Origin: a virus
Lineage: Duplodnaviria > Caudoviricetes
Virus record (IMG/VR): IMGVR_UViG_3300025127_000001
Coordinates: 562 to 64,561 of that record
Reading direction: 5' to 3' (one strand)
DNA: 64,000 nucleotides
Positions within the stretch are counted from its first letter, which is position 1; each line of letters begins with the position of its first letter. The notes beneath the pieces are model-generated. The model saw nothing but the letters and a program-made list of their open reading frames with translations. It was not told the DNA's origin and did not search any database. Below are positions 22,093 to 50,518 of this stretch, in pieces. The position numbers and the translations under genes were made by a program.

Positions 22093-25000
22093 ATGGAAGA
22101 GCTAGAAGTTATTGTACAACGTATGATTGACGCTGGAGAACCTGAAGAAAATATTAAACTAGTAATAGAAGAATATAGTAGAAGACAGGGAAAGCTAGCA
22201 GGTGTTGCGGAGACGGATGCAACTGTAGCACCGGAGCCAATAGCATCCGAGAGTACGGGATCAAACTTGGAAGATGGTTCTTTGGATTTAGATATAAAAG
22301 ATAGATCTATACCTAAAACTCCTCAAGGTGAATTAGTTTATGGTGATCAAAGAAGTTTTGATCAACAGATTATTGATTTCCAAAAGAACTATAATGACGC
22401 TATATTAGGTCAAGGTAAATATTCTTTTTTAGCTGATAAACCTAAAGCAGATAGATTACTTTTTGCTGATAAAATGGTTTCTAAACCTAGATACTTTAGC
22501 TCTGTTTATAACAAGTCTAAAGACAAGTATGAGGTTAAGCCAAGTAAAGGTATGTATGATAGAATATCTAGTTACTTACCTGATGACTTTAATTTATACG
22601 ATACACCTGAGCAATTTAATCAAGCGTTAGAAGATGGTAGAGCTCAAGCTCTACAACAAGATCCTATTGTAACTCAAATGTTAGAATCAAGATCTGCTTT
22701 GATGTCTGACGATTATAAAGAGTGGGAAGCTAACAAACGTAATGAATGGGATTTAACTACAGAAGAAGGTGTTATAGCTGCTAATAAAGAAGCTAATGAA
22801 TGGTTTTTAAAAAATATAGTTGAACCTGTAGAAAACTCTCAAACATTTAAAAGAGTGTTTAACGAGTACACAGACGTTACTGAAGCTATAATGGGTGAAA
22901 GACATGTGGGTTATGGTAGAAGTAAAGATCCGTTTTTAAGCAAAGACCCTAGTTCTTTACGTGAAGGCTGGAGGAAAGGTTGGAAACAATTTGGTTTAGG
23001 TTTTGAGAAAGCTGGTTTAAGTGCTGAGCATGGCGCGCTAGAAGATTATCTTGTAGAATTAAACGGCTTGCTAGATAAAGATCCAAATGAAGAAGTAAGA
23101 GTTAAACAAAAAGCTTCTATGCCTGCAAGTGCTTATGGTGCTGTATCAATAAAACCAGATAGAAGACTTACTGCTGAGGAAAGATCTAAAGAGTTGATAG
23201 ATCTTATTCTACAAACACAAGATAATATTAAGGGTAAAGTAAAAAACATAGCAGGTAAAGAAGCTGAATTAGGTTTATATAGAGCACCTGATTATGATGA
23301 TGGTATTAGTTTAGAAGACATACTTTTAACAACAGGTGAAGCAGGTTCTAGTTTAGTTGTTGTTGGTGGATCAGCTGCGCTAAGTCCATTTACTGGAGGA
23401 GCTAGTGGTGTGCTTGGTTTAACAGCTATGTTTGGTAGTATATATGGTCAGAACTATTATGATACTATATTACAAGGTTTAAAGGAAGACGGTATAGATG
23501 CTTCAAACCCTGAATTTGATAAACTAGTTGCTGAAGCTATTAGTGAAGGTAAATATGCGAATAGAGCTGAAGTCGCTGGGTTTGCAGCTGTAGAAACTGG
23601 ACTAGAAAGACTTGGTGCAGCTCCGCTTGTAAAAAACTTTATTAAGTCTATAGGACTTGGAACGTTAAACAAGAAAACATCTGCATCGTTATTTAGAAAC
23701 CAATGGAAACAGTTTGCTAAAAACGCTCCACAAAACGTTAGAGCTGTTGGTACATCTGGTTTAAGAGAAGCTGGAACTGAAGCTGGTCAAGCTGGTGTAT
23801 CTCAATTAAGTAAAGGTATACAGTTAGCAGATGATTTTGAAAACATAACTGCTACAAGTTATTTTGATCCAGCTGAAATAAGAGATAATGCTATAGCTGG
23901 TGGTATAGTTGGTGTTGTTACTCTTGGCGGTGGTAAGGTTGCTGGTCAAGCAACTATTGAATCTAGACAGTTATATAGAACTGCAGCAACAAGATTTAAT
24001 TCAAGAGACGCAGAAAGTATTAAAATAGTAGAAGCTTATTTTAAAAATCAAGAAAACAATTTAAAAGGAGATCTTGCTGCTAATAAAATAAATCAAGATC
24101 AATACGATAATCAAATGCAAGAGCTATCTAACGCTCGTAATGCTGGTTACAATATACCTTCTAACTTTAGTATTGAAAACAAAGAAAGATCTTTTGATCT
24201 TATAATGGAACGAAACGGTTTAAACAAACAGCTTAAACAACAAGACGATGCGCTTGCTCAACCTATAAAAGATCGTATAAAAGAAATAAATACAGAGCTT
24301 GCTGAGATAGGTAAGTCAGAGTTTAGTACACAAGTTATTGGTGGTGCTACTAAAATATCTAAAGCTCTTGATGTTCCTATAGAATATTTTAAAGATGACG
24401 CAGCTGTAACAAATAAGTTAAATGAACTTGAACAACAAGGTTATAATGTTGGTGATAAAAAAAATACTAACTTTGGTACTATTGTAGAAAATAGTGATGG
24501 TGATAAATTTATATTAATAAATCAAGCTAGAAACGAAGGTAAAGCTACAACAGAAGCTCATGAAGTTCTGCATGCTATATTATCACAAACAATAGGAACA
24601 GATGCAGAGCTTGCTAAAAAAATTGGTACATCGTTATTAAATGAGCTGACTACAAATAGTAAGATATTAGATTTAACAGATAACTTTGCTACACGTTTAG
24701 CTGGTTATGATTTAGAAAATAACCCACAAAACTTTGAAGAAGTATTAACACTGCTTAGCGAGGAGATGCTTGAAGGCAGAATTGTTTACAATGAAAGTGT
24801 TATGGAACGTATAGGTAGAATATTATCCGAAGCTTTTGCTAAGCTAACAGGTAAACCTATTACGTTTGAAAACGGTAAAGATGTATTTAACTTTGTAAGA
24901 GATTATAACAAAAGTGTTATAAAGGGTGAATTAACTGGCAGACAAAAAGCAGCCGCGGTAGAAGGTATACAAGTTGGAGATATTGATAGTGATGGTACAA

Positions 25001-28000
25001 GAGGACCATTAGCTTCTGGTACTGTAGTAGAAACAATTAACAATATAATACCTGAAACTATAACTACAAAAGATCAGTTTCAGTCTGACCCAAGAGTTTT
25101 TGGAGATGCGTTTAAAGCTACAGAAAAAGGTGGTGTAATATACAACTATGTTAATTCAAGGTCTAGTAGTAAAGAGCAAGCTGATGGTACATTAAGAAGT
25201 ATACAGGAAAGGTTATTAAACTACGACCCAGCAACAGGTAAATCATTTGCTGAATTTATTTTTTCTAACACTAACTTCGCTAGATTAGACGCTAACAAAG
25301 CTTTATTTAAAGAAAGCCAAAGACAAAGAACAGAAGGTACTAGCATAGACAGTGAACAAGCTAGACAAGTTGTAGATCCATCGACAGTATCAGGACCAGC
25401 GGTTGATGTGACTGTAGACGAAAAGGTTACAACTAAAATTGATCCATTAAGCTTTGAAAAAGTTACACCAGAAAAGCAAACTAAGATTAAAAATATAGTT
25501 GATATTAAGTCAGAGGACGTATCTAAGATCACACCTAAGGAACTTAATAATAGATACGCTGGTAAAGTTGCAGAAGTAATATTTGAAGTTCCTGAAACTA
25601 AAATTACCGACGCAAAGAAAAACTTAACTTACGCTAAAAAAATAGTAAAAGGAGTACAAGAAAAGTCTGAAGCTGGTAATATACAAGAGTTTTTTAGAGT
25701 TGGTCAAAACATGAAAAACTTTATTAAGATATTACCTGAGTTTAATGTAGCGCAAAATGAGGGTGATATATCTGATGTGGGTATTGAAGGTGAGAGTATA
25801 GCTGTAGACCCAACTGTTAAAGGTGTTTCTGTAGGTATTAACAATAGGTTGTTAAATTATTTCTACGAAGACTTTGTAGATCCAACAGGTGCTATTACTA
25901 CACCAGGTGGAAGGAGTAAAGGTTTAACTAGTCAAACAAAAGTTAAAAGATTAAAGCCTGAGTTTAGAAATCCTACACAAGAAGTTATAGATCAGGTTAA
26001 AGTAGATATAGGTATTACACCTCGTGGAGAGCTTAATCAATATGACAGAAGTATAGGTCAGATGTTAAAGGGAATGGCGAAACTTCAGGCGCAAAATACT
26101 GTAAGCAGGGCGGCCCGCCAAAAAGTAAAAGCACTTCCTGGTATTGAGCAAACGAAAAAACGCCAAACCGTGGCTAACATTACTAGTACAAAATCTAGAA
26201 TTATGGCCTCACAAGTGTTTGAAGAAACACTTAATGACCTACAAAAAAGTGATGTAGCTACAGAATATGATGCTGCTAGAAATAATAAGATATGGAAGCG
26301 TATAGCTAAAGATGTGGGTGTAGATTTTATTGAAGCAACTAACGAAGCTGATAGAGTTAAGTTCAAAGCTTTTGTATTAGAGAAATTACCTAAATATCTA
26401 CCACAAGCTTTCTTTACACCAGGCACTTTTGCTGGCGCCGGTAAGTCTGGTTATAAAAGAAACTTTTTCTTTTTAAGTAAAGATGAATTAACAGACTTAA
26501 TACGAGGAGTAGAGTTTGCAAAAGAAAACAAAGCTATTACGGCCGCTGTTACTAAAACCAATATTACCACTGGCACGGGTAAAAATAGAAAAGTATCTAA
26601 CGTCGCTATGCGTAGGTTTGAAGATGGTACTATAGCTAAAGAAAATAAATTAAAACAAAAAGGTTTAGAAGATATATTTTTAGCTCTTGAAAAGATGATG
26701 AAAGATGATAAGTCTACTATACCATTTGTTATATCATTACTTAGTAGCACTAGTCAATATCAAGGGCATTTCATGAGAGCAGCATCACCATGGACCTTTA
26801 TATCTAAAGATATAGAAAACGATGCTATTGTAGAAGAACACGTGTTACCTGCTAGTCTAGTTTCTAAGTATTTGTTTGCATCGGCATTAGAAGGTAAGAT
26901 TAAAAAGAATTATCCTGATGTAAAGAAAAATTATTTTCAAGGTATACTGTCTGATACAAACGATAAGAAGTTAAAACTAAGAGGCGAATTTAATTATCAA
27001 AGTATGCCGCCTGCTGGTTGGCAGATGTCAGATAATATATGGGCTAGATATTTTAATACCAATGTTGGTAATAATAATTTCGGTATAAGTCCTAGTGATA
27101 TTGTTTTAATAAATAAAAAGACAATAGCTCAAGAACTAAACATAGATCAATACGGTAACACAGTACCTAGAACATTTGCATCTCAACAAGAAAAAGCTTC
27201 TGAAAAAGATAACAAGATATTAGCTAAATCTATAAGACCAGTAAAAGCTAGTAAGTCTTTACCTACAAACTTATCGTTAAGTAAATTAGTAGACGAAGCT
27301 TTAAACAAAGCTAGAGATCCTAGAGCTTCTGAAAAAGGTATTAGTGTATTTGATTTTGATGATACTGTAGCTACAAGTAAAAGTATGGTTATAGTTAATA
27401 TGCCTAACGGTAATACTAAAAAAATTACTCCAGCTGAGTTTGCAAAACAACACAGCACACTAGAAGGGCAAGGGGCTAAGTTTGATTTTAGTGAGTTTAA
27501 TAAAGTTGTTGATGGGAAGCCTGGGCCATTAGCTGCTAAAATGGAAAAAGCAATTAATAAGTTTGGAAACAAAGACGTATTTATACTTACAGCTAGACCA
27601 CAAGAATCAGCTCAAGCTATATATGATTTTTTAAAAGGTATAGGTTTAGAAATACCACTAGGTAATATAACAGGTTTGGCAGACGGAACACCACAAGCAA
27701 AGGCTAGATGGATAGTAGGTAAAGCAGCTGAAGGTTACAATGACTTTTATTTTGCTGACGATGTATATAAAAATGTTAAAGCTGTACAAGACGCATTAAG
27801 TGTATTAGATGTTAAATCTAAAATAAGACAAGCTAGAATATTGGCAAGTAAAGATCTTGATAAAGACTTTAACGACATTATAGAAAACAAAACAGGTATT
27901 GCTTCTGAAAAAACTTATGGTCAAGTTAAAGGTGAAGTTGCTGGTAAAGATAAAGGTAGGTTTAATATATTTGTTCCACCGTCAGCTGAAGATTTCGTAG

Positions 28001-29847
28001 GTTTATTATACGCTACGTTAGGTAAAGGTAAAGTTGGTGATTCACAGATGGCTTGGTACAAAGCTAATTTATTAGACCCATATGCTAGAGCTATGACTAA
28101 TATATCTCGTGCTAGACGAGCAATGTTTGAAGATTACAAAGCATTAAAGAAACAAATAAAGATTAAACCAAAAGATCTTAAAAAGAAAGTACCAGGTGAA
28201 CCATTTACACGCGAGCAAGCTGTAAGAGTTTATATATGGAACCAACAAGGTATGGAAGTTCCTGGTATAAGTAAGGCAGATAATAAAGATTTAGTTGACT
28301 TTGTTAATAAAAACGAAACACTAAAAACATTTGCTGACCAATTAATAGGTATGCAAAAAGGTACAGAGTATGCTGCGCCTAAAGTAGGTTGGCCAGCTGG
28401 TACTATAACAACTGATTTATTAAACACTATAGGTACTGTTAAAAGATCTTTGTATCTACAACAATGGCAGGAAAATGCTGATATAATATTTTCTGAAAAG
28501 AATATGAATAAGCTTGAAGCTGCGTTTGGTAAACCATATAGAAAAGCTTTAGAAGGTATGCTAGCTCGTATGAAGAGTGGTCGTAATAGAAGCTTTGATG
28601 GTGATACAATGACTGGTAAATTTACAGACTGGTTAACAGGTCAAATCGGTACAATCATGTTCTTTAATACTAGATCAGCTTTACTACAGTTAATATCATC
28701 TGCTAACTTTGTAAACTTTACAGACAATAATATATACAACGCTGCTAAAGTGTATGCTAATCAACCTCAGTATTGGAAAGATGTAATGATGTTAATGAAC
28801 TCAGACTTCTTAGTTGAAAGACGTAGTGGTTTAAGGTTTAACGTTAATGAGTCTGATATTGCTGACATGGCTAAGCAAGCTGGATACAGAGGTGTTGTAT
28901 CTAAGTTGTTACAATTTGGTTTCTTACCAACACAAATAGCTGATAGTTTAGCTATCGCAACAGGTGGCGCTACTCTTTATAGAAATAGAATTAATACATA
29001 CAAGAAACAAGGTATGGATCAGAAAGCTGCAGAAGAAAAAGCTTTTCAAGATTTTAGAGAAATAGCTGAAGAAGCTCAGCAGTCTAGTAGACCTGATAGA
29101 ATATCCGCACAACAAGCTGGACCATTAGGTAGAATAATATTAGCATTTGGTAACACACCTATGCAGTATATGAGGTTAATTAAAAAAGCCGCGTCTGATA
29201 TTAAAAATGGTAGAGGTGATTTTAAAACAAATGCTTCTAAAATAGTTTACTACATGCTAGTTCAAAACTTAATATTCAACGCCCTGCAACAAGCTATATT
29301 TGCTGTAGCATTTGGTGACATCGAAGAGGAAGATGAAAATAGTAAGTATGTAAACATAGCTAATGGTATGGCGGACTCATTATTAAGAGGTATGGGTATT
29401 GGTGGAGCTATTGTTTCTATAGGAAAAAATGTAGGTAAAAGAATATACGACGAAAGCCAAAAGAAAAATCCTAAGTTTGAAAAGATAGGTTATGAAGTTG
29501 CTAAGTTATCACCTCCATTATCAGCTAAGCTTTCAAGAATAAATCAAGCAGCAAGATCGTACCAATGGGATAAAGATAAAATGATGAGTGAAGGATTGTC
29601 GCTTGAAAACCCTGCGTACTTAGCAGGAGCAAATATTATTGCAGCTACTACAAACATACCATTAGATAGAGCAATAAAGAAAACAAACAATGTTGTACAA
29701 GCTACAACTCAAGACTTAGAAACCTGGGAAAGGTTTGCATTGCTAGGTGGTTGGCAAGACTGGGAACTAGGTATTGAAGACGAAGAAAAAAAGAAAACAA
29801 AAAAGAAAAAATCATCAAATAAAAAACGTAGATTCGTAATAGATTAA
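22093..29847 (+). CDS. Giant multidomain internal virion protein (zincin HExxH, sigma-like, HNH-like and HAD domains)
   Basis: 2584 aa; HEVLH at ~aa 823; sigma region-2-like segment ~aa 1010-1090; EEHVLP; HAD motifs VFDFDDT/ILTAR/FADD. Confidence 0.7.
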   Translation: MEELEVIVQRMIDAGEPEENIKLVIEEYSRRQGKLAGVAETDATVAPEPIASESTGSNLEDGSLDLDIKDRSIPKTPQGELVYGDQRSFDQQIIDFQKNYNDAILGQGKYSFLADKPKADRLLFADKMVSKPRYFSSVYNKSKDKYEVKPSKGMYDRISSYLPDDFNLYDTPEQFNQALEDGRAQALQQDPIVTQMLESRSALMSDDYKEWEANKRNEWDLTTEEGVIAANKEANEWFLKNIVEPVENSQTFKRVFNEYTDVTEAIMGERHVGYGRSKDPFLSKDPSSLREGWRKGWKQFGLGFEKAGLSAEHGALEDYLVELNGLLDKDPNEEVRVKQKASMPASAYGAVSIKPDRRLTAEERSKELIDLILQTQDNIKGKVKNIAGKEAELGLYRAPDYDDGISLEDILLTTGEAGSSLVVVGGSAALSPFTGGASGVLGLTAMFGSIYGQNYYDTILQGLKEDGIDASNPEFDKLVAEAISEGKYANRAEVAGFAAVETGLERLGAAPLVKNFIKSIGLGTLNKKTSASLFRNQWKQFAKNAPQNVRAVGTSGLREAGTEAGQAGVSQLSKGIQLADDFENITATSYFDPAEIRDNAIAGGIVGVVTLGGGKVAGQATIESRQLYRTAATRFNSRDAESIKIVEAYFKNQENNLKGDLAANKINQDQYDNQMQELSNARNAGYNIPSNFSIENKERSFDLIMERNGLNKQLKQQDDALAQPIKDRIKEINTELAEIGKSEFSTQVIGGATKISKALDVPIEYFKDDAAVTNKLNELEQQGYNVGDKKNTNFGTIVENSDGDKFILINQARNEGKATTEAHEVLHAILSQTIGTDAELAKKIGTSLLNELTTNSKILDLTDNFATRLAGYDLENNPQNFEEVLTLLSEEMLEGRIVYNESVMERIGRILSEAFAKLTGKPITFENGKDVFNFVRDYNKSVIKGELTGRQKAAAVEGIQVGDIDSDGTRGPLASGTVVETINNIIPETITTKDQFQSDPRVFGDAFKATEKGGVIYNYVNSRSSSKEQADGTLRSIQERLLNYDPATGKSFAEFIFSNTNFARLDANKALFKESQRQRTEGTSIDSEQARQVVDPSTVSGPAVDVTVDEKVTTKIDPLSFEKVTPEKQTKIKNIVDIKSEDVSKITPKELNNRYAGKVAEVIFEVPETKITDAKKNLTYAKKIVKGVQEKSEAGNIQEFFRVGQNMKNFIKILPEFNVAQNEGDISDVGIEGESIAVDPTVKGVSVGINNRLLNYFYEDFVDPTGAITTPGGRSKGLTSQTKVKRLKPEFRNPTQEVIDQVKVDIGITPRGELNQYDRSIGQMLKGMAKLQAQNTVSRAARQKVKALPGIEQTKKRQTVANITSTKSRIMASQVFEETLNDLQKSDVATEYDAARNNKIWKRIAKDVGVDFIEATNEADRVKFKAFVLEKLPKYLPQAFFTPGTFAGAGKSGYKRNFFFLSKDELTDLIRGVEFAKENKAITAAVTKTNITTGTGKNRKVSNVAMRRFEDGTIAKENKLKQKGLEDIFLALEKMMKDDKSTIPFVISLLSSTSQYQGHFMRAASPWTFISKDIENDAIVEEHVLPASLVSKYLFASALEGKIKKNYPDVKKNYFQGILSDTNDKKLKLRGEFNYQSMPPAGWQMSDNIWARYFNTNVGNNNFGISPSDIVLINKKTIAQELNIDQYGNTVPRTFASQQEKASEKDNKILAKSIRPVKASKSLPTNLSLSKLVDEALNKARDPRASEKGISVFDFDDTVATSKSMVIVNMPNGNTKKITPAEFAKQHSTLEGQGAKFDFSEFNKVVDGKPGPLAAKMEKAINKFGNKDVFILTARPQESAQAIYDFLKGIGLEIPLGNITGLADGTPQAKARWIVGKAAEGYNDFYFADDVYKNVKAVQDALSVLDVKSKIRQARILASKDLDKDFNDIIENKTGIASEKTYGQVKGEVAGKDKGRFNIFVPPSAEDFVGLLYATLGKGKVGDSQMAWYKANLLDPYARAMTNISRARRAMFEDYKALKKQIKIKPKDLKKKVPGEPFTREQAVRVYIWNQQGMEVPGISKADNKDLVDFVNKNETLKTFADQLIGMQKGTEYAAPKVGWPAGTITTDLLNTIGTVKRSLYLQQWQENADIIFSEKNMNKLEAAFGKPYRKALEGMLARMKSGRNRSFDGDTMTGKFTDWLTGQIGTIMFFNTRSALLQLISSANFVNFTDNNIYNAAKVYANQPQYWKDVMMLMNSDFLVERRSGLRFNVNESDIADMAKQAGYRGVVSKLLQFGFLPTQIADSLAIATGGATLYRNRINTYKKQGMDQKAAEEKAFQDFREIAEEAQQSSRPDRISAQQAGPLGRIILAFGNTPMQYMRLIKKAASDIKNGRGDFKTNASKIVYYMLVQNLIFNALQQAIFAVAFGDIEEEDENSKYVNIANGMADSLLRGMGIGGAIVSIGKNVGKRIYDESQKKNPKFEKIGYEVAKLSPPLSAKLSRINQAARSYQWDKDKMMSEGLSLENPAYLAGANIIAATTNIPLDRAIKKTNNVVQATTQDLETWERFALLGGWQDWELGIEDEEKKKTKKKKSSNKKRRFVID

Positions 29848-41090: not shown

Positions 41091-41115
41091 TTGGTATATT
41101 GGTTTTTCTTATTAA

Positions 41116-41146
41116 TATAATTACACATAATTTTTATGTTTTACAA
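41116..41146 (-). promoter_or_regulatory. Putative class II promoter TTGTAAA-N14-TGTAATTATA
   Basis: Matches the element at 50454-50484 in sequence and spacing; upstream of the ERF operon. Confidence 0.55.
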
Positions 41147-41153
41147 ACCTAAC

Positions 41154-41909
41154 TTACAGATAGTCAAGCACTTGCGAGTGATCAACTTCTTCAATAAGTT
41201 TGTCAACAGCTTGTTTTTTTATCTCTGAAACACGCACATAATCACTAACGCCGTTGATGTTTAGTTTTGCAGCAATTTGTTTTGCTGTGTGCTTATCACA
41301 GTCTAAACCATATGATAATCTTAATACCTCATATTGTTGCTCTGTTAAATGCTTTCTAAGTAAACCTTGTAGGTAAACATTTAGTAATTGAACATTATAA
41401 GGTTCTGATTTATCAGGTAACTGTTGTACCATAGATTCACCTTCATCATTTAAAGGTTGAGCATCTATAGATAAAAATATAGAATTAAAAAACATTTCAA
41501 CCATTTTTTTATCTTTAGGGTTTTTACGTATTTCATTCATCTTGTGCTCTGGTATACGCATCGTACCTCTATGTCTATCAATACGTCTTCGTATAGCTCC
41601 TTTAATACGTTTACTAAAAAATGATTTAAGAGTTTTTTCAATATCATCAGAGTCGATTAACATATCCCACTCTAATTTATCTACTGCTCTTGTTAAAGCT
41701 TCATTGCCTATTTGTATAAGATCGTTTATACTTAATATACCTGAAGCTTGGTCTCCGGTTGAAAATTTTCTAGCTAAGTTTTCTACCAATGGCATAAACT
41801 TAACTATCATTTCATCACGGGTATAATAATCATAGAATTTATCTTTAGGCATAGATCTTTTTAAATCTTCTTTGTACCTAATATAATTCTGTACGTTATA
41901 TTTCCTCAT
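41154..41909 (-). CDS. Phage sigma-70-family factor
   Basis: Region 2 (LVENLARKF..DLIQIGN.AL.RAVDK), R..RIP, SID, region 4 (L...VL.L.YGL...T.KQIA..L...RVSEIKKQA). Confidence 0.9.
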   Translation of the reverse strand: MRKYNVQNYIRYKEDLKRSMPKDKFYDYYTRDEMIVKFMPLVENLARKFSTGDQASGILSINDLIQIGNEALTRAVDKLEWDMLIDSDDIEKTLKSFFSKRIKGAIRRRIDRHRGTMRIPEHKMNEIRKNPKDKKMVEMFFNSIFLSIDAQPLNDEGESMVQQLPDKSEPYNVQLLNVYLQGLLRKHLTEQQYEVLRLSYGLDCDKHTAKQIAAKLNINGVSDYVRVSEIKKQAVDKLIEEVDHSQVLDYL

Positions 41910-42525
41910 TCATTTCTTGTTTTGCGCGTTTTAAATCATCACACATGTGACGATATACTGTTCTTTGTGATACACCTAAAACTTCTGCTAACCATCGTAC
42001 TGTTATCTTACGATGCTCTGATATGTCAATCATAGCTTGGTATATCGTTTCTTTACAAATACTAGATCTACCAATTAACTTACCAACAATACTAAGCTTT
42101 TCACTCAGTGTTAGCATGTTGTAAGGTTTAAATATTACCTTACGCTTTTTGTTTTTAGGTGGATCACCACCTGTCATTAATACATCACCAATCATATCTT
42201 CTAAAGCTTTATTGCTTATAAAGAAAGTTACAAAACCGTTATCTTTATTTGCTATAAATTTAAATATATATCTCATGTCATCTTCAAACGACACTTCATC
42301 ACCATCAATACCTTCTTGATTTAAATAATATAACACTAGCATGTGCCACTTTAATGATTTGTATGTAGTTATTTTAGCTTTTGTATTAAACAGATGATAA
42401 CATGCGTAAGTACCGTTTTCATAATACTTGTATTGCTTGGTTTCAATAGTAGGTATATCATCACCATCGTGACGATATATAACTCGCCTATTGTTTAACC
42501 ATTTCATATTTCTGTTTTGTGACAT
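41896..42525 (-). CDS. DNA-binding protein with C-terminal HTH (possible replication initiator/regulator)
   Basis: ITVRWLAEVLGVSQRTVYRHM helix-turn-helix. Confidence 0.65.
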   Translation of the reverse strand: MSQNRNMKWLNNRRVIYRHDGDDIPTIETKQYKYYENGTYACYHLFNTKAKITTYKSLKWHMLVLYYLNQEGIDGDEVSFEDDMRYIFKFIANKDNGFVTFFISNKALEDMIGDVLMTGGDPPKNKKRKVIFKPYNMLTLSEKLSIVGKLIGRSSICKETIYQAMIDISEHRKITVRWLAEVLGVSQRTVYRHMCDDLKRAKQEMNEEI

Positions 42526-44381: not shown

Positions 44382-44644
44382 AAGTTTTTTAATTTATTTT
44401 CTATATTTCTAATTCTGTTTTTAATGATAGCACATTTTTCATATTCTTGTCTATCCTCTAGCATATTTAACTGTGTTTGTAGACGCGCTAGTTCGCCTAC
44501 TAGTATTTCTTCTTGATCTGTTGTAAAGTTTAATGGGTATATGTCACCGTATTTTTTGATTATACGAGTAAAAACCAGCTCAGAAAGCTGGTCTATATAG
44601 TCATCAAATTTACTTAGGTCATACATATTATTGTTATCCAACAT
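44378..44644 (-). CDS. Hypothetical protein with UVR-like C-terminal motif
   Basis: 'EYEKCAIIKNRI'. Confidence 0.5.
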   Translation of the reverse strand: MLDNNNMYDLSKFDDYIDQLSELVFTRIIKKYGDIYPLNFTTDQEEILVGELARLQTQLNMLEDRQEYEKCAIIKNRIRNIENKLKNL

Positions 44645-44662
44645 AAGTCGTATTTAGTTTGT
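44633..44662 (-). promoter_or_regulatory. Class I early promoter-like repeat (variant)
   Basis: ACAAA-CTAA-ATACG-ACTTATGT-TGGATAAC. Confidence 0.6.
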
Positions 44663-45196
44663 AAGTATATCAATAATCTTTTGAGCATTAACTCGTAGAC
44701 CGTTATAGTCTTTTAAGCTAAGATCAACTTTACTTGACTCAATATTTTCATAATATCTAGTTTCACTGTTAGCAAAATCAGTATAATCCATAGGATCTTT
44801 ATCGTTCATGTATCTTGATATTACTTTTTCTGGTTTTAGCACAAAAACATTGCTGCTACTATAGTTATCCCAACAGCTAATCCATCTATCTTTTTTACCC
44901 GACCATATAATATAAGTATACTGATGGTCAATATGCATTGGATCAGCGTATAGATAGCAACTGTCATAGTACATATCATGCACTAATTTAGCAGCTAATC
45001 TGCTGCCATCTTGACTAGGGTTAGCATGTAACCAATTAGCTATTTGCACAGCTTGCCATTCAGGATAACCATCGTGATGTAAGTACATATTTACATAGCT
45101 TTTGTCACTAAATACACTAGGATAATCTGCAAAACCAAGCTCTGAGTTCTCAGCATGCTTTCGATCTACAACCATTGTTAAGTTTCTAGTCGCCAT
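44654..45196 (-). CDS. Hypothetical protein (HHDGYP motif)
   Basis: MATR...YLHHDGYP, a common phage early-gene motif. Confidence 0.6.
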   Translation of the reverse strand: MATRNLTMVVDRKHAENSELGFADYPSVFSDKSYVNMYLHHDGYPEWQAVQIANWLHANPSQDGSRLAAKLVHDMYYDSCYLYADPMHIDHQYTYIIWSGKKDRWISCWDNYSSSNVFVLKPEKVISRYMNDKDPMDYTDFANSETRYYENIESSKVDLSLKDYNGLRVNAQKIIDILTN

Positions 45197-45401
45197 TTTC
45201 TTTATCGTATTCTGTTAATATATCGTTTATTTGATCTTCAAAGTTTACTATTTCTTTAGCCAAACTTACAAAGTCTCTTAGTGCGTTAGCCTCGTACTGA
45301 CTAAGCTCATCAGCCGATACTTCACCATATTCTATTGCATTTAAGCAATCTTCAATATCTCTTGTAGTGTTTTCAAACCTACAATAGCTCATATTTGCCA
45401 T
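45186..45401 (-). CDS. Hypothetical protein
   Basis: M.NMSYCRFENT..D motif. Confidence 0.6.
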   Translation of the reverse strand: MANMSYCRFENTTRDIEDCLNAIEYGEVSADELSQYEANALRDFVSLAKEIVNFEDQINDILTEYDKENGD

Positions 45402-45421
45402 AATTATTAATTTAAAGTTAG

Positions 45422-45495
45422 TTGCGGGAGTAGGATTCGAACCTACGACCTCAAGGTTATGAGCCTTGCGAGCTGACCAACTGCTCTATCCCGCT
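45422..45495 (-). tRNA. tRNA-Met(CAT), initiator-like, no encoded CCA
   Basis: AGCGGGA TA GAGC AGTTGGTCA GCTC G CAAGG CTCATAA CCTTG AGGTC GTAGG TTCGAAT CCTAC TCCCGCA A; 1:72 mismatch, A11:U24. Confidence 0.92.
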
Positions 45496-45499
45496 ATTT

Positions 45500-45760
45500 T
45501 TAGTCTAGCAAAGTCATATATGCTTTTGGGTTTGCTGATCTAAACCAGTCAAGACCTTTACGAGTAATATCGTAGTGTCCAGTCATTTGACTACCCATTA
45601 TTAAGTCATACATTGCAACTTCGTTAGGTGACAATAGGGCTTTATCGCCAGTAAAAGGGTTTTCTACTGTTTCCCATTGTGTATATACCGCACCGTCATA
45701 CCATTTTGGTAATGGTTTTTGTCCTGTATCATTAGTCTTCGTACTCATAGCCTTCGTCAA
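45500..45760 (-). CDS. Hypothetical protein
   Basis: Early ORF ending KAYMTLLD. Confidence 0.6.
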   Translation of the reverse strand: MTKAMSTKTNDTGQKPLPKWYDGAVYTQWETVENPFTGDKALLSPNEVAMYDLIMGSQMTGHYDITRKGLDWFRSANPKAYMTLLD

Positions 45761-46175
45761 TTAATTCGTTTTCAACTTCTTTTTTAATATCACCAAAGTA
45801 TTCTTCGTAAACTTCATCAACCACTTCTTGAAAAGCATAGTCTTCTGATTCAAGATCTGTGTAGTATATGCTACAACCATCATACATACAGTTAGGCATT
45901 TTTTCAAGCCAATCGCTGTCATAGTAGTATATATCTTCATTTAATGATGGATTTCTGTCGTTATCTGTAGCAACCCATATTTCATAACCATCAGCTGTTG
46001 TTTCTGTATAGAACATAAAGTCTGGGTTTTTCCAGTCTTCTGATATAGAAAATTCATAATGGTCTTTAATACTTTGAAGTTTGTAGTCAAAATCTACATC
46101 TTCAGGTGCTAAACACCCGTAATCTTCTGACATTTTTGCCAAGATTAGATCGTCTGTTAATAGTTTTTTGCTCAT
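45732..46175 (-). CDS. Highly acidic hypothetical protein
   Basis: D/E/Y-rich, 147 aa. Confidence 0.6.
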   Translation of the reverse strand: MSKKLLTDDLILAKMSEDYGCLAPEDVDFDYKLQSIKDHYEFSISEDWKNPDFMFYTETTADGYEIWVATDNDRNPSLNEDIYYYDSDWLEKMPNCMYDGCSIYYTDLESEDYAFQEVVDEVYEEYFGDIKKEVENELIDEGYEYED

Positions 46176-46405
46176 TTTGAAATTATATTATAGCCAAACA
46201 GATAACTGTGAGGGCTTAGTTCTGAATTATTTAAGTTAGAGTATGTGATTATGTCTGATAAATCTTGTACAGTCAAGTCTGACCACATAGTTTTAGACAT
46301 AAGATTATACTTTAATCTTTTAGCTGTGCTGTATTTTTTAGCACTGTCTTGCAATGAAGTTTTTACATTTGGTAAAAGCTCATCATAAATAGTTTTAATT
46401 GCCAT
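46172..46405 (-). CDS. Hypothetical protein
   Basis: Directly downstream of promoter repeat. Confidence 0.6.
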   Translation of the reverse strand: MAIKTIYDELLPNVKTSLQDSAKKYSTAKRLKYNLMSKTMWSDLTVQDLSDIITYSNLNNSELSPHSYLFGYNIISK

Positions 46406-46417
46406 AGTTTTTATTTT

Positions 46418-46447
46418 ATTATCGATTTTTATTTGTATTAGATTTGT
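46418..46447 (-). promoter_or_regulatory. Class I early promoter-like repeat
   Basis: ACAAA-TCTA-ATACA-AATAAAAA-TCGATAAT. Confidence 0.75.
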
Positions 46448-46814
46448 AATTTCTTAAGTAATATTCAACAATAAATACTAGTCTAGTCATTTCTTCGTAT
46501 ATAAGAGTTCTAGCCCAAGCAGTACCTTTTCTTACATAAGTTTCACCTGTGTCTCTATCTAACCACATCCATCTGTCTTCTCTTTGATACTTAGGATTTA
46601 GTTGATAAATTCTGTCACTGCTATTACATCTACGAACGTAACCGCTTGAATATGAGCCAAGTAGCTCACCACCGGGACAAAGAAATATTCTTGTACCGTT
46701 TTTAGCTTGTCTTTGAGTCGTGACCTCTTTGAGACCATACTCAACAAGCATTCTTCTAGCATATGTATCACATAACATCTGCCGTTCTTGTTGCCAAGTG
46801 TAAGTGTTTTGCAT
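46419..46814 (-). CDS. Hypothetical protein
   Basis: 131-aa ORF. Confidence 0.6.
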   Translation of the reverse strand: MQNTYTWQQERQMLCDTYARRMLVEYGLKEVTTQRQAKNGTRIFLCPGGELLGSYSSGYVRRCNSSDRIYQLNPKYQREDRWMWLDRDTGETYVRKGTAWARTLIYEEMTRLVFIVEYYLRNYKSNTNKNR

Positions 46815-46836
46815 TGTTTATTTATTTTAAGATTAG

Positions 46837-46916
46837 TGGACGTGGCAGGATTCGAACCTGCGTTTGCTACTGGATGTCTCATAGAGATCACAGCTTGCAC
46901 TAACCATTTCACGCCC
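46837..46916 (-). ncRNA. tRNA-like RNA A: Ala-type acceptor, no D stem, no anticodon loop (resembles tmRNA tRNA-like domain)
   Basis: GGGCGTG/CACGTCC-A acceptor with G3:U70; T arm GCAGG-TTCGAAT-CCTGC; central 35-nt irregular hairpin. Confidence 0.7.
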
Positions 46917-46920
46917 TTAT

Positions 46921-47085
46921 GAGAGGCACCAGTCTCGGACCGGTACTAACTAGTATTATGCTTTATCCGAGCTTTTGACCAGTATGCCGCCGCCTCTCTG
47001 CCACAACGCCGGTCTGCCGACATCTTCCGCTAAGAAGCATTTCTTATTGTGGCTATTATGTAGTCTGCCGCTAACAGCAGCACCT
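46921..47085 (-). ncRNA. Unassigned structured RNA
   Basis: GC-rich non-coding tract with helices CTGCTG/CGGCAG, GCCACAAT/GTTGTGGC, GAGAGGC/GCCTCTC, CTCGGA/TCCGAG. Confidence 0.5.
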
Positions 47086-47090
47086 TCCAA

Positions 47091-47279
47091 CTACTTACGC
47101 CGCCAAGCACGGTGAACAGATGCGCTCACCTCTTGACTGACGATTTGTATTGTATTGCCTGTTTTGTGCTCTATGATTGGAACGTATGAGTAAGTTTGCG
47201 TGGTTGAACAGTCAACACACGTCTTGTAACCTAAATCTAAACGCACTGGGTGCACAGTTTTTCCGCATCTACAATACAT
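47091..47279 (-). CDS. Small zinc-finger protein
   Basis: C.CG......RL.LGY.TCV.C, resembling DksA/TraR C4 fingers. Confidence 0.6.
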   Translation of the reverse strand: MYCRCGKTVHPVRLDLGYKTCVDCSTTQTYSYVPIIEHKTGNTIQIVSQEVSASVHRAWRRK

Positions 47280-47294
47280 AGTTTGTTTTATTTT

Positions 47295-47324
47295 ATTATC
47301 GATTAGTGTTCGTATTATTTTTGT
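47295..47324 (-). promoter_or_regulatory. Class I early promoter-like repeat
   Basis: ACAAA-AATA-ATACG-AACACTAA-TCGATAAT. Confidence 0.75.
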
Positions 47325-47500
47325 ATCAACTTGTTTATTGCTACATTAATAATATAAGCACAAGCTTCAGTGTATTCATCACCTTCTAACTCGCTTACAA
47401 TAGTTCCATCAACCACCCAGTCAATAGAATCTTCAATTAATTCATGTAAGTGATCCGCCATAGCGTCTGCTATCGAATCAAGTTCTTTCATTTTACTCAT
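47315..47500 (-). CDS. Acidic hypothetical protein
   Basis: 61-aa ORF. Confidence 0.55.
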   Translation of the reverse strand: MSKMKELDSIADAMADHLHELIEDSIDWVVDGTIVSELEGDEYTEACAYIINVAINKLIQK

Positions 47501-47726
47501 TTTCTTTATTTTTTATTACTCTTGCTATAATTTCCATTGTCCAAGTACCATCTTCTTGTATACCTACAACTTCAAGATTGCCTTGTTTTAATACTTTATT
47601 TATTAATTCTGGACCTAAGTTTGACCTCATAGGTATTGATACTATCTCACACTCGTCAGTTATTGGTCCTCCTTTTAAGTCTTCTGGCCATCTCCAAAAG
47701 CTAAAATTTCTTGTTGGTGTTCCCAT
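47493..47726 (-). CDS. Hypothetical protein
   Basis: 77-aa ORF. Confidence 0.55.
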   Translation of the reverse strand: MGTPTRNFSFWRWPEDLKGGPITDECEIVSIPMRSNLGPELINKVLKQGNLEVVGIQEDGTWTMEIIARVIKNKENE

Positions 47727-47890
47727 TATTTAAATTTATTTGCTACTTCACGTATTTCTTCTTTGTCGTCGCTGTCAAGCCCAGGTGTTTGCTGAGCGTA
47801 CATGCGCAGTACATAGTGTACAAAAGTACAATCGCCTTCAGTTAGTTTTATTGTTTTAAACTTAGTTTTTTTAAACCCGTTAGTTTCCAT
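47726..47890 (-). CDS. Small hypothetical protein (not in ORF track)
   Basis: 54 aa METNGFKKTKFKTIKLTEGDCTFVHYVLRMY...; fills the gap with coupled start/stop. Confidence 0.55.
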   Translation of the reverse strand: METNGFKKTKFKTIKLTEGDCTFVHYVLRMYAQQTPGLDSDDKEEIREVANKFK

Positions 47891-48170
47891 ATTCTATATT
47901 TGCTTCTGAAGTTACCATCCATTCACAGTCATTCACTTTATGACCTGCGCCATATAAAAACGCTTCACAAGATTCTGAGTCTGGATTCCATTTATTATTC
48001 TCATTACATAAAGAGCTAATGTCATATTTATACACTTTACCATCTGTAAAATCTAGTAAAAATATATATTTAGCTCTACTAATTTGTATTTCTTTCATAT
48101 ATTGCTCGGCATTTTCAGCAAGCTTACGCTCTTCTTCCATTTCATGCCATTTAGTAATTGTATCGCTCAT
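47880..48170 (-). CDS. Hypothetical protein
   Basis: 96-aa ORF. Confidence 0.55.
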   Translation of the reverse strand: MSDTITKWHEMEEERKLAENAEQYMKEIQISRAKYIFLLDFTDGKVYKYDISSLCNENNKWNPDSESCEAFLYGAGHKVNDCEWMVTSEANIEYGN

Positions 48171-48418
48171 GATTTAGCTATTAATTTTAGTTGTTCTACT
48201 GAATATTTTTTACTTGTCTGTTGCCACATGCGGTTGTGCGTGAACTTACGAGCTTTGCTATATGTCTTCTTACCGTCGACTTTGTATCGCATATACTCTT
48301 TATCAGTAAGTCCACTACACCTACCGTCGTGGGCGTGCTTACGTCTATGCTCCGCGGCACGCAGTTTCTTTTGCTGCTCAGCATAGTTTAGCAGCTCTCG
48401 CATATTAGTAACTACCAT
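48167..48418 (-). CDS. Basic hypothetical protein
   Basis: 83-aa ORF. Confidence 0.5.
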   Translation of the reverse strand: MVVTNMRELLNYAEQQKKLRAAEHRRKHAHDGRCSGLTDKEYMRYKVDGKKTYSKARKFTHNRMWQQTSKKYSVEQLKLIAKS

Positions 48419-48606
48419 GGTAGGTCAGATTTTTCAATAAAGGTTAGACCTTTGTAGTTAAACCATTGATATTTACCTTGTTTGTCGCCATTGTCTTTGA
48501 AGCCAAATGATGGCGGTAGATCGGCTATCTTGTAGCCTTTGTACTCAACGCCTGCAAGATTTGCAAGTTGAGTGTCGTACTTTTTGTAGAATTTTATTGA
48601 TTGCAT
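48412..48606 (-). CDS. Hypothetical protein
   Basis: Downstream of promoter repeat. Confidence 0.55.
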   Translation of the reverse strand: MQSIKFYKKYDTQLANLAGVEYKGYKIADLPPSFGFKDNGDKQGKYQWFNYKGLTFIEKSDLPW

Positions 48607-48623
48607 AGTATTGATTTTATAGT

Positions 48624-48653
48624 ATTATCGATAGTGATTTGTATTTTGTTTGT
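48624..48653 (-). promoter_or_regulatory. Class I early promoter-like repeat
   Basis: ACAAA-CAAA-ATACA-AATCACTA-TCGATAAT. Confidence 0.75.
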
Positions 48654-48943
48654 TAATCACCTGTAAAATTATCCCACCTAGTCTTGCTGTCATAGTATGC
48701 TTGACAACCTGCGTCGTGGAGTCTTTGCATTTCTTTATGATGCTCTACATTGTCAAGATAGTCATCAATACGCTCATGCATCTCATCTTCAGTTATAGTG
48801 CCGAAGCTTACTACATTTACATGTTGTAGTAAAGTTTTACAGTTACAATTGAAGCCTTTTGCTTCTTTACCATTGTATGTAGTCCACTCTTGATACTCAT
48901 AAGGTGTATCTCTGTAAGTTATTATGTCACCTGGTTTATACAT
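48653..48943 (-). CDS. Hypothetical protein
   Basis: 96-aa ORF. Confidence 0.55.
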   Translation of the reverse strand: MYKPGDIITYRDTPYEYQEWTTYNGKEAKGFNCNCKTLLQHVNVVSFGTITEDEMHERIDDYLDNVEHHKEMQRLHDAGCQAYYDSKTRWDNFTGD

Positions 48944-49076
48944 TTTGATTAGATTTTTGATAGTTAGTAATTATTTTTTCAACATCTTCACGAGTTATCT
49001 CGCCTTTCCATTGTTTTAGTACGTAGCTAGACATATCTATTTGTTTACCGTTTTGACAAGTTAGTATAAATTGCAT
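48936..49076 (-). CDS. Small hypothetical protein (not in ORF track)
   Basis: 46 aa MQFILTCQNGKQIDMS... Confidence 0.5.
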   Translation of the reverse strand: MQFILTCQNGKQIDMSSYVLKQWKGEITREDVEKIITNYQKSNQNV

Positions 49077-49087
49077 AGTATTATATT

Positions 49088-49207
49088 TTAGTGAAAGTCA
49101 TAATATACTTCTATAACTTTATCTTTTTGTTCTTGAGTTAATTTAGTATAATGCTTGTCGAATAGTCGCCAAGATATTTTTAGTAGAGTATAAGATTTAG
49201 TACACAT
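49088..49207 (-). CDS. Small hypothetical protein (not in ORF track)
   Basis: 39 aa MCTKSYTLLKISWRLFDKHY... Confidence 0.45.
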   Translation of the reverse strand: MCTKSYTLLKISWRLFDKHYTKLTQEQKDKVIEVYYDFH

Positions 49208-49225
49208 AGTATATTATTTTATTAG

Positions 49226-49411
49226 TTAAACATTTATTTTATTATCGTCGCCTTGTTGTGTTTTGTTTGTAATAGGTTGGTCAAACGGTGCTTCGAGTGT
49301 ACCGAATAGCAGTTCGTCGAAGTATTCACCGCTTGAAATAAACCTATTTTGTAATTTAGAGTAGTATCTTCTAGCCATAGATTCCGAATTGTATGCCATC
49401 AGGAACACCAT
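49226..49411 (-). CDS. Hypothetical protein
   Basis: True start probably internal (MARRYY). Confidence 0.45.
   Translation of the reverse strand: MVFLMAYNSESMARRYYSKLQNRFISSGEYFDELLFGTLEAPFDQPITNKTQQGDDNKINV
49241..49270 (-). promoter_or_regulatory. Class I early promoter-like repeat (variant)
   Basis: ACAAA-CAAA-ACACA-ACAAGGCG-ACGATAAT. Confidence 0.65.
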
Positions 49412-49565
49412 TGATTAATAAGTTTACTACTAGTGTTATCCAACCCACTACTGCTAATGGTAGTAAGAAACCGAAAGCAAATACTTCCATTGCTACTTCA
49501 TGTATTGGTTTTGACTTGACATATTTAGTCACTGCGGCTTGAAAGCCTCTGAATTTAAATTTCAT
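49371..49565 (-). CDS. Small membrane protein
   Basis: One long hydrophobic helix. Confidence 0.55.
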   Translation of the reverse strand: MKFKFRGFQAAVTKYVKSKPIHEVAMEVFAFGFLLPLAVVGWITLVVNLLINGVPDGIQFGIYG

Positions 49566-49587
49566 ATTGTTAGATTTAATAAGTTAG

Positions 49588-49691
49588 TGGATAAGGTGGG
49601 AGTCGAACCCACATGCCATACACAACTTACGCCATTGACCGAAGCCAAATTGTAGCCATTGCATGATACACTACTGTCCATGTAGTTACCC
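49588..49691 (-). ncRNA. tRNA-like RNA B: Ala-type acceptor, long UUCG-capped arm in place of anticodon arm
   Basis: GGGTAA/TTATCC-A with G3:U70; T arm GTGGG-TTCGACT-CCCAC; TTGGC-TTCG-GTCAA apex. Confidence 0.6.
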
Positions 49692-49764
49692 ATGTATGAG
49701 TGATTCAACTTTGTTTATACTCGAGAAAATAACTCATAACGCCGAGTGGTTTGTAGAGTGCTAA

Positions 49765-49995
49765 TTAAAGCACTTCTACATCACCTTGTAAAACTCTTGG
49801 AATTGAAGTCGAAGAAGTGTAAGACTTGTATTTTTCCCAGCAGTTTAACTTAGTTAAGTTATCTTTCATAAGTGAGAACACTTTGTCATGATTGTATTTG
49901 AATGTTTTACCATTTTTGAATTCAACATTGATAACTTGATTTTTACCGATTAGTGATTGTCTAACGACGAATCTTTTAGAATTTAGAATTGACAT
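49765..49995 (-). CDS. Hypothetical protein, first clear early gene
   Basis: 76-aa ORF downstream of two promoter repeats. Confidence 0.6.
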   Translation of the reverse strand: MSILNSKRFVVRQSLIGKNQVINVEFKNGKTFKYNHDKVFSLMKDNLTKLNCWEKYKSYTSSTSIPRVLQGDVEVL

Positions 49996-50044
49996 AATTG
50001 TTTAGATTTAGAATTATTATTATTATTTATATTGTCTTTATAGT

Positions 50045-50074
50045 ATTATCGAATGAGCTTTGTAATTTGTTTGT
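50045..50074 (-). promoter_or_regulatory. Class I early promoter-like repeat
   Basis: ACAAA-CAAA-TTACA-AAGCTCAT-TCGATAAT. Confidence 0.75.
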
Positions 50075-50159
50075 GACAAGTGTAATTTTGTTTACTTGTT
50101 AAAATTAGTTTAGTAGTTATACCGCATTGTCTCATAGTGCATTAGATATTTACAATAGT

Positions 50160-50189
50160 ATTATCGAAATATAACTGTAAATAGTTTGT
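50160..50189 (-). promoter_or_regulatory. Class I early promoter-like repeat
   Basis: ACAAA-CTAT-TTACA-GTTATATT-TCGATAAT. Confidence 0.75.
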
Positions 50190-50197
50190 ATAAAACG

Positions 50198-50228
50198 ATA
50201 TGTCAATGTGTCATGACAATATGTCAAT
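50198..50228. repeat. TGTCA cluster
   Basis: ATATGTCAAT direct repeats flanking palindrome TGTCATGACA. Confidence 0.65.
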
Positions 50229-50404
50229 TAGTTCTACGGAAAATGATGAATAGTCTAGCCTATCGGGGTGAAACGCGTATATATGACGGCGCATCGTGGT
50301 AAAACAGGGGCAACCCGGTGAAACGAAACGATTTTAAATACAGACCGGCTACGGAAAAAAGAGTGGGCAACACAAATACTCTCTATTAGTAACGACTTTA
50401 TATA

Positions 50405-50447
50405 TGACACTAGCCTTATAAAGTATATAAGTAACTAGCTATTGTCA
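50405..50447. promoter_or_regulatory. 43-bp dyad TGACA-N33-TGTCA, copy 2
   Basis: TGACACTAGCCT...TAGCTATTGTCA. Confidence 0.6.
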
Positions 50448-50453
50448 CTGTTC

Positions 50454-50484
50454 TTGTAAATAAAAGCGAAAACCTGTAAGTATA
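50454..50484 (+). promoter_or_regulatory. Putative class II promoter TTGTAAA-N14-TGTAAGTATA
   Basis: Matches 41116-41146; heads the + arm. Confidence 0.55.
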
Positions 50485-50518
50485 TAGAATATAGTATAAA
50501 CTAATAAAAAAATTAAAC

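Follow-up and report, generated by a model that had tools for sequence, protein, structure and literature searches.

A promoter class that is real, specific to one phage lineage, and previously undescribed precedes the early genes of the virus in IMG/VR record IMGVR_UViG_3300025127_000001 (Duplodnaviria; Caudoviricetes). The window analysed here is a stretch of 64,000 nucleotides (nt) comprising bases 562-64561 of the 64,561-bp record. The promoter element, called class I, occurs in seven copies on the minus strand, and the sigma-70-family factor encoded by the phage at 41154-41909 may be the protein that reads it. The literature was searched at the level of titles and abstracts, and no earlier description was found of the motif, nor of flavobacterial podophages that encode a sigma factor.

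Class I in the window and in related phages

The seven copies of class I share one strand and one spacing. The window was scanned with the pattern ACAAA-N4-WTACR-N8-TCGATAAT, with 100 dinucleotide-preserving shuffles as the control. Five exact matches were found, all on the minus strand (46418, 47295, 48624, 50045, and 50160), while none of the 100 shuffles had any match. With up to three mismatches there were nine matches compared to a shuffle mean of 0.56, and these include variants at 44633 and 49241 with two mismatches each. Plus-strand sites at 18324 and 33455, with three mismatches each, look like chance and were set aside. A position weight matrix (PWM) built from copies in other viral contigs gave the seven window copies scores of 14.1-40.3 bits. 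No other position in the window scored above 12 bits, nothing in five shuffles scored above 5 bits, and no further copies were found in the full 64.5-kb phage genome. The copies are as follows.

P1, 50160..50189, minus strand: exact copy, 23.8 bits; first of a tandem pair heading the minus-strand module
P2, 50045..50074, minus strand: exact copy; ATG 49 nt on, that of the early gene with the widest conservation (49765-49995)
P3, 49241..49270, minus strand: variant with two mismatches, 14.1 bits; ATG 33 nt on
P4, 48624..48653, minus strand: exact copy lying over the stop codon of the upstream open reading frame (ORF); ATG 17 nt on
P5, 47295..47324, minus strand: exact copy; ATG 15 nt on
P6, 46418..46447, minus strand: exact copy; ATG 12 nt on
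P7, 44633..44662, minus strand: variant with two mismatches; heads an operon of ligase, DNA-binding protein, helix-turn-helix (HTH) protein, and sigma factor

The original prediction, a note made from the window alone, had proposed a seven-copy motif of invariant spacing with every copy pointing into the early genes. All of this was borne out. The spacing is the same in all seven copies between 44633 and 50189, and each copy is followed by an ORF on the same strand, with 164, 49, 33, 17, 15, 12, and 6 nt from the end of the core to the ATG. The element behaves as a promoter class. The motif search that the note had proposed for this and related genomes recovered just the seven copies in the window and showed that the element recurs in related viral contigs. 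Five of the seven overlap the 3' end of the preceding ORF, and the module opens with P1 and P2 in tandem, next to a divergent non-coding region of 329 nt. Four copies end 6-17 nt before the ATG, suggesting that leaders are very short or absent.

The loci that bear the motif are relatives of this phage. An exact-pattern scan found class I in at least 118 viral-contig stretches. Among the matches listed for these stretches there are 164 copies (141 unique), and the first early gene was matched in 73 of the 118 loci listed. The viral copies widen the motif to about 45 bp, tTACAAAcTAAATACGAa-N6-WTCGATAATATAAaTG, and an ORF starts within 200 nt of 245 of 250 unique copies, at a median distance of 23 nt. 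In addition, 80 related loci were fetched via the sigma gene, and class I copies scoring above 20 bits were counted. All 285 copies are on the strand of the sigma gene; 274 of them lie upstream of it, the first 2 kb beyond it contain none, and the other 11 are 2-3 kb downstream. In many relatives, and also in P3 and P7, ATAAATGTAA or ATAAATGAAT stands right after the -10 block. These sequences bring an ATG close to the predicted start of the transcript, and a stop codon often comes straight after that ATG.

Matches in bacterial genomes are of a different kind. In 596 Gb of bacterial genomes the exact pattern gave 65 singletons from unrelated phyla. When only the pattern-free flanking positions were scored, the bacterial median was -19 bits compared to +16 for the viral copies, and 151 of 164 viral copies exceeded the bacterial 95th percentile, a contrast that is somewhat inflated because the PWM was trained on viral copies. 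Two of the 65 have family-like flanks, one of them near-identical to P2. Both are on contigs of only 4-8 kb and are thus probably pieces of phage DNA that were placed in bacterial bins.

The lineage probably consists of uncultured marine podophages that infect Flavobacteriia, as judged from its relatives and translation signals. By terminase and portal the nearest cultured relatives are the Flavobacterium 'elemo' phages, Cellulophaga phi38:1 and Calle, and Tenacibaculum Gundel, all of which grow on Flavobacteriia, and the closest record is the uncultured podovirus MW202828.1 (terminase identity 62%). A Shine-Dalgarno-like 4-mer precedes just three of 81 genes, and the leaders are rich in A. 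According to an excerpt of PMC6847099, Bacteroidota lack Shine-Dalgarno sequences, so these features fit a Bacteroidota host.

Promoter type and comparison with the host consensus

Class I appears from its sequence to have the layout of a promoter for a sigma-70-family holoenzyme, with a -10 element of alternative-sigma type. Sigma-28 promoters have the consensus (-15)GCCGATAA(-8) and (-36)TCTAAAG(-30), as given in an excerpt of PMC12784957. The numbering of class I was borrowed from the sigma-28 register by placing CGATAA at -13..-8. In this register TTACAAA falls at -38..-32 as a -35 element, AATACGA forms a spacer block at -28..-22, and TG lies at about -1/+1. The -10 core CGATAA is identical to that of sigma-28/FliA in consensus (six of six positions) and is held by six of the seven window copies. 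The upstream block is likewise at the -35 position, where TACAAAC (-37..-31) and TCTAAAG have a C and an AA run in common with an offset of one base. GATAAT, with A at -11 and T at -7, is found in six window copies and is fixed in the family, while P7 has GATAAC. The distance from the end of ACAAA to GATAAT is 19 nt in all seven copies and in all family copies that an ungapped PWM found. With TCGATAAT as the -10 element (G-12, A-11, T-7), transcription would start about 7 nt past GATAAT, a predicted site that implies very short leaders. In contrast to sigma-28 promoters, class I carries the extra conserved spacer block AATACGA and belongs to a phage of a non-flagellated host group.

As regards N4-type hairpin promoters, no inverted repeat of at least 5 bp with a loop of 3-8 was found in any of the seven copies. 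A resemblance to T7 promoters (AATACGAC...) was dropped when no single-subunit polymerase gene was found. No RNA polymerase match was detected among 43 ORFs searched against PHROGs or among 13 window ORFs searched against Pfam, with the small ORFs partly scanned.

The strand bias of class I is complete (285 of 285), its distance from the start codon is fixed and short, and it has -35/-10 geometry with A-11 and T-7. Two copies head the module with no gene upstream, and no other promoter candidate precedes these genes. These properties make it highly improbable that class I is not a promoter and serves as a repressor or activator site or as an RNA-level signal before genes. That alternative would suit the conservation that runs past the -10 block into the leader. 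It is also consistent with the public RNA data, in which four runs match parts of the stretch, as contigs only, with low and fragmentary cover that is alike over early and late genes.

Class I is unlike the housekeeping promoter of the host group, as the original prediction had claimed. In an excerpt of PMC6847099 the -7 element of F. johnsoniae has six nearly invariant positions (T-12, A-11, T-8, T-7, T-6, and G-5). Class I resembles the Bacteroidota housekeeping promoter (-33 TTTG / -7 TAnnTTTG) in span, in its spacer of about 20 nt, and in A-11 and T-7, but it differs at four of the six invariant -7 positions and lacks TTTG. Six window copies match two of the six positions, and P7 matches one. 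The host box TAnnTTTG occurs 96 times on both strands of the window compared to about 80 estimated by hand from base composition, and none of these is at the start of a module. Across the 80 loci (1.33 Mb), TTG-N18-21-TAnnTTTG was found 45 times versus 26-32 times in shuffled sequence, and the matches show no peak at any position upstream of the sigma gene. Among phages of this host group, those that use the host sigma do carry the box. The four middle promoters of the Cellulophaga phage phi14:2 read TTG...TAnnTTTG, and in MW202828 TAnnTTTG is found about 20-26 nt ahead of the ATG of several late and middle genes. A non-housekeeping factor is thus plausible for class I. To this extent the earlier claim that a dedicated factor is needed is plausible; delivery of the factor with the virion, discussed below, is not supported.

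The -35/-10 pair of class I was not enriched in 61 Flavobacteriaceae genomes (17 matches versus 31 for a reversed control), in a test that has little power for very small regulons. In many of these genomes there is a pair of RpoD-like sigma genes (about 287-300 aa), and with the FliA/WhiG model each reaches about 110-140 bits. It is possible that the second of these sigma factors is a host reader of class I.

Candidate readers of class I

The phage sigma factor is the best candidate to read class I. The gene, its neighbour, and two further promoter-like boxes are located as follows.

41154..41909, minus strand: phage sigma-70-family factor, 251 aa, with regions 2 and 4; region 2.4 FliA-like, region 3.0 RpoD-like
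41896..42525, minus strand: 209-aa protein with a C-terminal HTH, conserved beside the sigma gene and not related to sigma factors
41115..41148, minus strand: class II box, tGTAAAa-N13-TGTAATTATATTAATA, after the sigma stop codon and ahead of the Erf-like gene; heads the recombination/replication module
50454..50485, plus strand: class II-like box, TTGTAAA-N14-TGTAAGTATAT, 33 nt ahead of the first late gene (50519)

The phage protein matches Sigma70 regions 2 and 4 just under the Pfam cut-offs, phrog_351, and a general sigma-70 superfamily model above its cut-off. In the PDB it matches SigA in regions 2 and 4 and FliA from end to end. In region 2.4 the phage sequence KRIKGAI aligns with QRIRGAM of E. 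coli FliA and WWIRQAI of RpoD. The two melting tryptophans of primary sigma factors have been lost, while the arginine of group 3 has been kept. An excerpt of PMC12784957 describes the arginine that replaces W434 as conserved among the sigma factors of group 3 and in contact with -12G. G at -12 never varies in class I and is missing from class II, and none of the 61 Flavobacteriaceae genomes reaches the FliA/WhiG cut-off. The arginine, the invariant G-12, and the lack of a host FliA together point to the phage sigma factor as the reader.

The distribution of the sigma gene agrees with that of the motif. A sigma gene is encoded by 417 viral contigs and is present in eight of nine complete motif-bearing genomes searched. 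The ninth genome, where a profile search was also negative, was considered as a sigma-less counterexample and rejected. Its contig ends at the position where sigma would lie, between the primase and HTH genes, and it is therefore uninformative. The collection of cultured phages has no record of this sigma factor, and among sigma-less relatives no class I copies were found in MW202828 or in the 34 kb of elemoF examined. A 62-aa piece of sigma region 2 gave no matches as a query, for which it was too short. A class I copy stands directly before the sigma ATG in only two of eight genomes (two of 80 loci). The 209-aa HTH protein was rejected as a second sigma factor (probability of a match 0.26%), and it is possible that it is a co-factor.

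A different box, class II, follows the sigma gene in nearly all of these phages. In eight of eight genomes the interval from the sigma stop codon to the Erf-like gene contains the conserved box tGTAAAa-N13-TGTAATTATAtTAaTA, and a looser form is found at this position in 69 of 79 loci. All 33 strict matches are at the post-sigma position, with none elsewhere within 10 kb on either side. In the four complete genomes compared, a related box, (T/C)GTAAKnAT with AGTAACAGGC...GTCAC upstream, stands before the first late gene. With the strict class II PWM there is one site per genome, and the case for class II as a general late promoter thus depends on looser similarity. Class II was not enriched in host genomes (12 versus 10).

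Our preferred reading, held tentatively and at a little short of even probability, is that class I promoters are private to the phage lineage and are read most likely by the phage sigma factor (41154-41909) in a self-reinforcing circuit. Bacterial core RNA polymerase would read class I with the help of a non-housekeeping sigma-70-family factor. The phage sigma, which we infer to be this factor, would drive the ORFan early genes and its own operon. Class II would be read otherwise, for example by host sigma-A with a phage co-factor. The first sigma molecules might arise through weak host recognition of A-11 and T-7, or might be carried in with the DNA.

Several observations weigh against this reading. 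Sigma-28 promoters have an extended -10 GC at -15/-14 where the class I family has W-T, and the T-7 that is invariant in class I is not used by sigma-28. Region 3.0 of the phage sigma is RIPEH, which is RpoD-like, with about 28 residues of region 3 missing, and the protein scores only 28.8 bits with the FliA/WhiG model TIGR02479 (cut-off 189.6). The co-occurrence of motif and sigma is confounded by shared ancestry because the whole early module is inherited together. In addition, the class I block ends with the sigma gene, which stands straight ahead of another promoter type; this is the layout of a regulator of the genes that follow. Class II is left with no assigned reader. Finally, since the sigma gene is downstream of class I, the first sigma must be made or brought in.

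Because a different box always follows the sigma gene, a classical cascade is a serious rival, although we regard it as unlikely. Here host holoenzyme, with sigma-A acting in a non-canonical way or with the second RpoD-like sigma, would read class I, and the phage sigma would read class II or GTAAT-type boxes. The positions of the boxes suit this scheme, with class II behind sigma in eight of eight genomes and 69 of 79 loci, its strict matches confined to that place, and class I lying upstream of sigma in 274 of 285 copies and missing from the 2 kb after it. The genes behind class I are ORFans of the kind usual among early genes, an Erf-like gene comes first behind class II, and a class II-like box precedes the late operon. 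The cascade is free of the start-up problem, SPO1 provides a precedent in excerpts of the published accounts, and two RpoD-like sigma factors of about 290 aa are available in many Flavobacteriaceae genomes. However, class I fits only two of the six sigma-A -7 positions, whereas phages of the same hosts that use sigma-A show a clear TAnnTTTG. The class I pair is also not enriched in the host-family genomes, with the caveat for very small regulons given above, and class II lacks the G-12 expected for the group-3 arginine of the phage sigma.

Delivery of the factor with the virion, as claimed in the original prediction, is unsupported. That claim was drawn from the position of the sigma gene downstream of class I. 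It does not follow, since the -10 block and region 2.4 point to the phage sigma, and injection is only one way to solve the start-up problem that this reader would face. That virions contain the phage's own sigma, which would be injected along with the DNA and redirect host core polymerase to class I before phage expression, appears quite improbable. The giant virion protein that was searched for a sigma-like or polymerase-like domain is the following.

22093..29847, plus strand: virion protein of 2584 aa (the giant protein), in which an HExxH region is combined with a HAD-like DFDDT domain

The HExxH is around residues 800-950 and the DFDDT around residues 1750-1900, followed by a long conserved helical C-terminus. 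Metagenomic data contain more than 6,500 homologues of the C-terminal 865 residues, all of them unnamed and lacking a Pfam domain. No sigma-like or polymerase-like domain was detected in the 2584-aa protein or in a second virion protein of 1773 aa by sequence searches of PHROGs, Pfam, and PDB. A borderline PDB match of a virion protein to sigma (E = 0.009) disappeared with a fuller alignment, had a probability of just 0.56% in hhalign, and was rejected. Profile searches, hhalign, and Foldseek on low-confidence models of the giant protein gave no polymerase match and no robust sigma match. The predicted fold of residues 1720-2584 (predicted local distance difference test, pLDDT, 62) has weak matches to HAD-type acid phosphatases, and that of residues 600-1700 (pLDDT 55) has weak matches to HExxH zinc-protease folds; neither gave a Foldseek match at E <= 0.001. 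An Atlas search with the N-terminal 1740 aa found unnamed clusters only, and PDB sequence searches had no matches for the portal, the 1773-aa protein, or the giant protein of MW202828.

MW202828 appears to have a different system of early-gene control on a shared structural module. Between 43745 and 55154 of MW202828.1 there is a perfect 16-bp palindrome, GTGTCGTTAACGACAC, in 14 exact copies (15 with one variant). It is usually about 20 nt ahead of an early-gene ATG, and this genome has neither a sigma gene nor class I. Its giant protein is unrelated to that of the phage studied here. Early elements thus differ between lineages, which keeps alive another explanation, in which some factor distinct from the encoded sigma is brought in with the DNA. 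The giant virion protein could contain such a factor as a cryptic polymerase or specificity subunit, like those of N4 or crAss-like phages. The giant protein has a conserved C-terminus in all five motif-bearing genomes tested, a host-type promoter was not found anywhere in the early region, and, according to excerpts of the published account, the virion polymerase of phi14:2 escaped ordinary sequence searches except for one short motif. We consider this explanation rather improbable, since the sequence, profile, hhalign, Atlas, and two fold searches gave no polymerase or sigma signal (even if the second model reached a pLDDT of only 55) and the recognisable domains of the giant protein are HExxH-type and HAD-type. 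Class I also has the two-block geometry of a sigma-type promoter with no hairpin in any of seven copies, while the early transcripts of phi14:2 share no upstream motif in the excerpted account.

Genome context and comparison with known systems

The genome has late genes on the plus strand and an early to middle module on the minus strand, separated by a divergent region.

Plus strand: late genes, with terminase at 1701, portal at 3906, and virion proteins including those of 1773 and 2584 aa
Plus strand, also late: tail fibres, and GroEL/GroES-like genes after 50519
50189 down to 31146, minus strand: small ORFans, tRNA-Met, ligase, DNA-binding protein, HTH protein, and sigma
Same module beyond sigma, minus strand: Erf, exonuclease, primase-helicase, thymidylate synthase, MazG, and ribonucleotide reductase
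50190..50518: divergent non-coding region between the early (minus) and late (plus) modules, 329 nt, relatively GC-rich, with short repeats

The record has a 127-bp terminal repeat that sits inside the late coding region. It therefore reflects an assembly overlap and not a physical end, and it gives no clue to the polarity of injection. The divergent region contains two copies each of the short direct repeats CTACGGAAAA and GGTGAAACG, and two copies of ATTGACATAT just upstream of P1 on the minus strand. Comparable GC-rich repeat regions occupy the same place in relatives, and the region may serve as an origin or in packaging. In 43 ORFs searched against PHROGs, no gene for a DNA polymerase was found. 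The phage does have primase-helicase, Erf, exonuclease, and ligase, along with ribonucleotide reductase, thymidylate synthase, and MazG.

Two small RNA candidates are found among the early genes. An 83-nt element at 46834-46916 (minus strand), inside a gap of 276 nt at 46815-47090, is a predicted tRNA-like mini-RNA. It fits both ends of the transfer-messenger RNA model, comprising the acceptor stem and T-arm, with 36 nt replacing the 326-nt middle. It scored 34 bits compared to a gathering score of 47 (E = 2.8e-12 in a search of 341 nt), with no ARAGORN call. A perfect T-arm-like hairpin, GUGGGUUCGACUCCCAC, lies at 49596-49612 (minus strand) in the region 49566-49764, where the sole ORF is doubtful (43 aa), and this hairpin may belong to a second tRNA-like RNA.

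The lineage is abundant in marine data, with more than 6,500 homologues of the giant-protein domain and the 417 sigma-bearing viral contigs. Sequence nearly the same as that of the window is present in marine RNA libraries as well. Its early and middle programme seems to run without one canonical host promoter, using two private promoter classes and its own sigma factor instead. If the promoters ahead of the sigma gene are read by the phage sigma itself, how infection starts has to be explained; we know of no precedent for such an arrangement at the start of infection. If the host reads class I, then Flavobacteriia hold an undescribed promoter specificity. A virion-packaged sigma, if true, would bypass the host housekeeping sigma altogether, and injection of a sigma would be a third route to starting infection beside injected polymerases and host-read early promoters. 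The element of about 45 bp may also be useful as a lineage marker, and with the sigma factor it is a candidate orthogonal promoter/sigma pair for Bacteroidota genetics.

Class I shares features with further known systems and differs from each. The promoters of N4-type virion RNA polymerases are hairpins. As in N4-type phages, repeated elements head the early genes of a podophage with a giant virion protein, but class I has no inverted repeat, and the hairpin-like palindrome is that of MW202828. The crAss-like Cellulophaga phage phi14:2 has a host of the same class, a structural module that ends with a giant virion protein, and promoters called 'tripartite' in excerpts of its description. In the same excerpts, however, its early genes are read by a virion polymerase with no common motif, and the tripartite promoters are middle promoters for host sigma-A. 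The class I PWM had no matches in 50 kb of phi14:2. Phage-encoded sigma cascades are represented by gp28 and gp33/34 of SPO1 and gp36 of phiEco32, which are sigma factors of phage origin. Excerpts of the published accounts describe both as phages in which a sigma-70-family factor redirects host core RNA polymerase. They are like the phage studied here in being lytic and in having their own sigma-70-family factor and a private, highly conserved promoter class. In SPO1 and phiEco32 the early promoters use host sigma-A and the phage sigma serves later genes, whereas here, with no host-type promoter seen, the private class fronts the earliest genes and lies upstream of the sigma gene.

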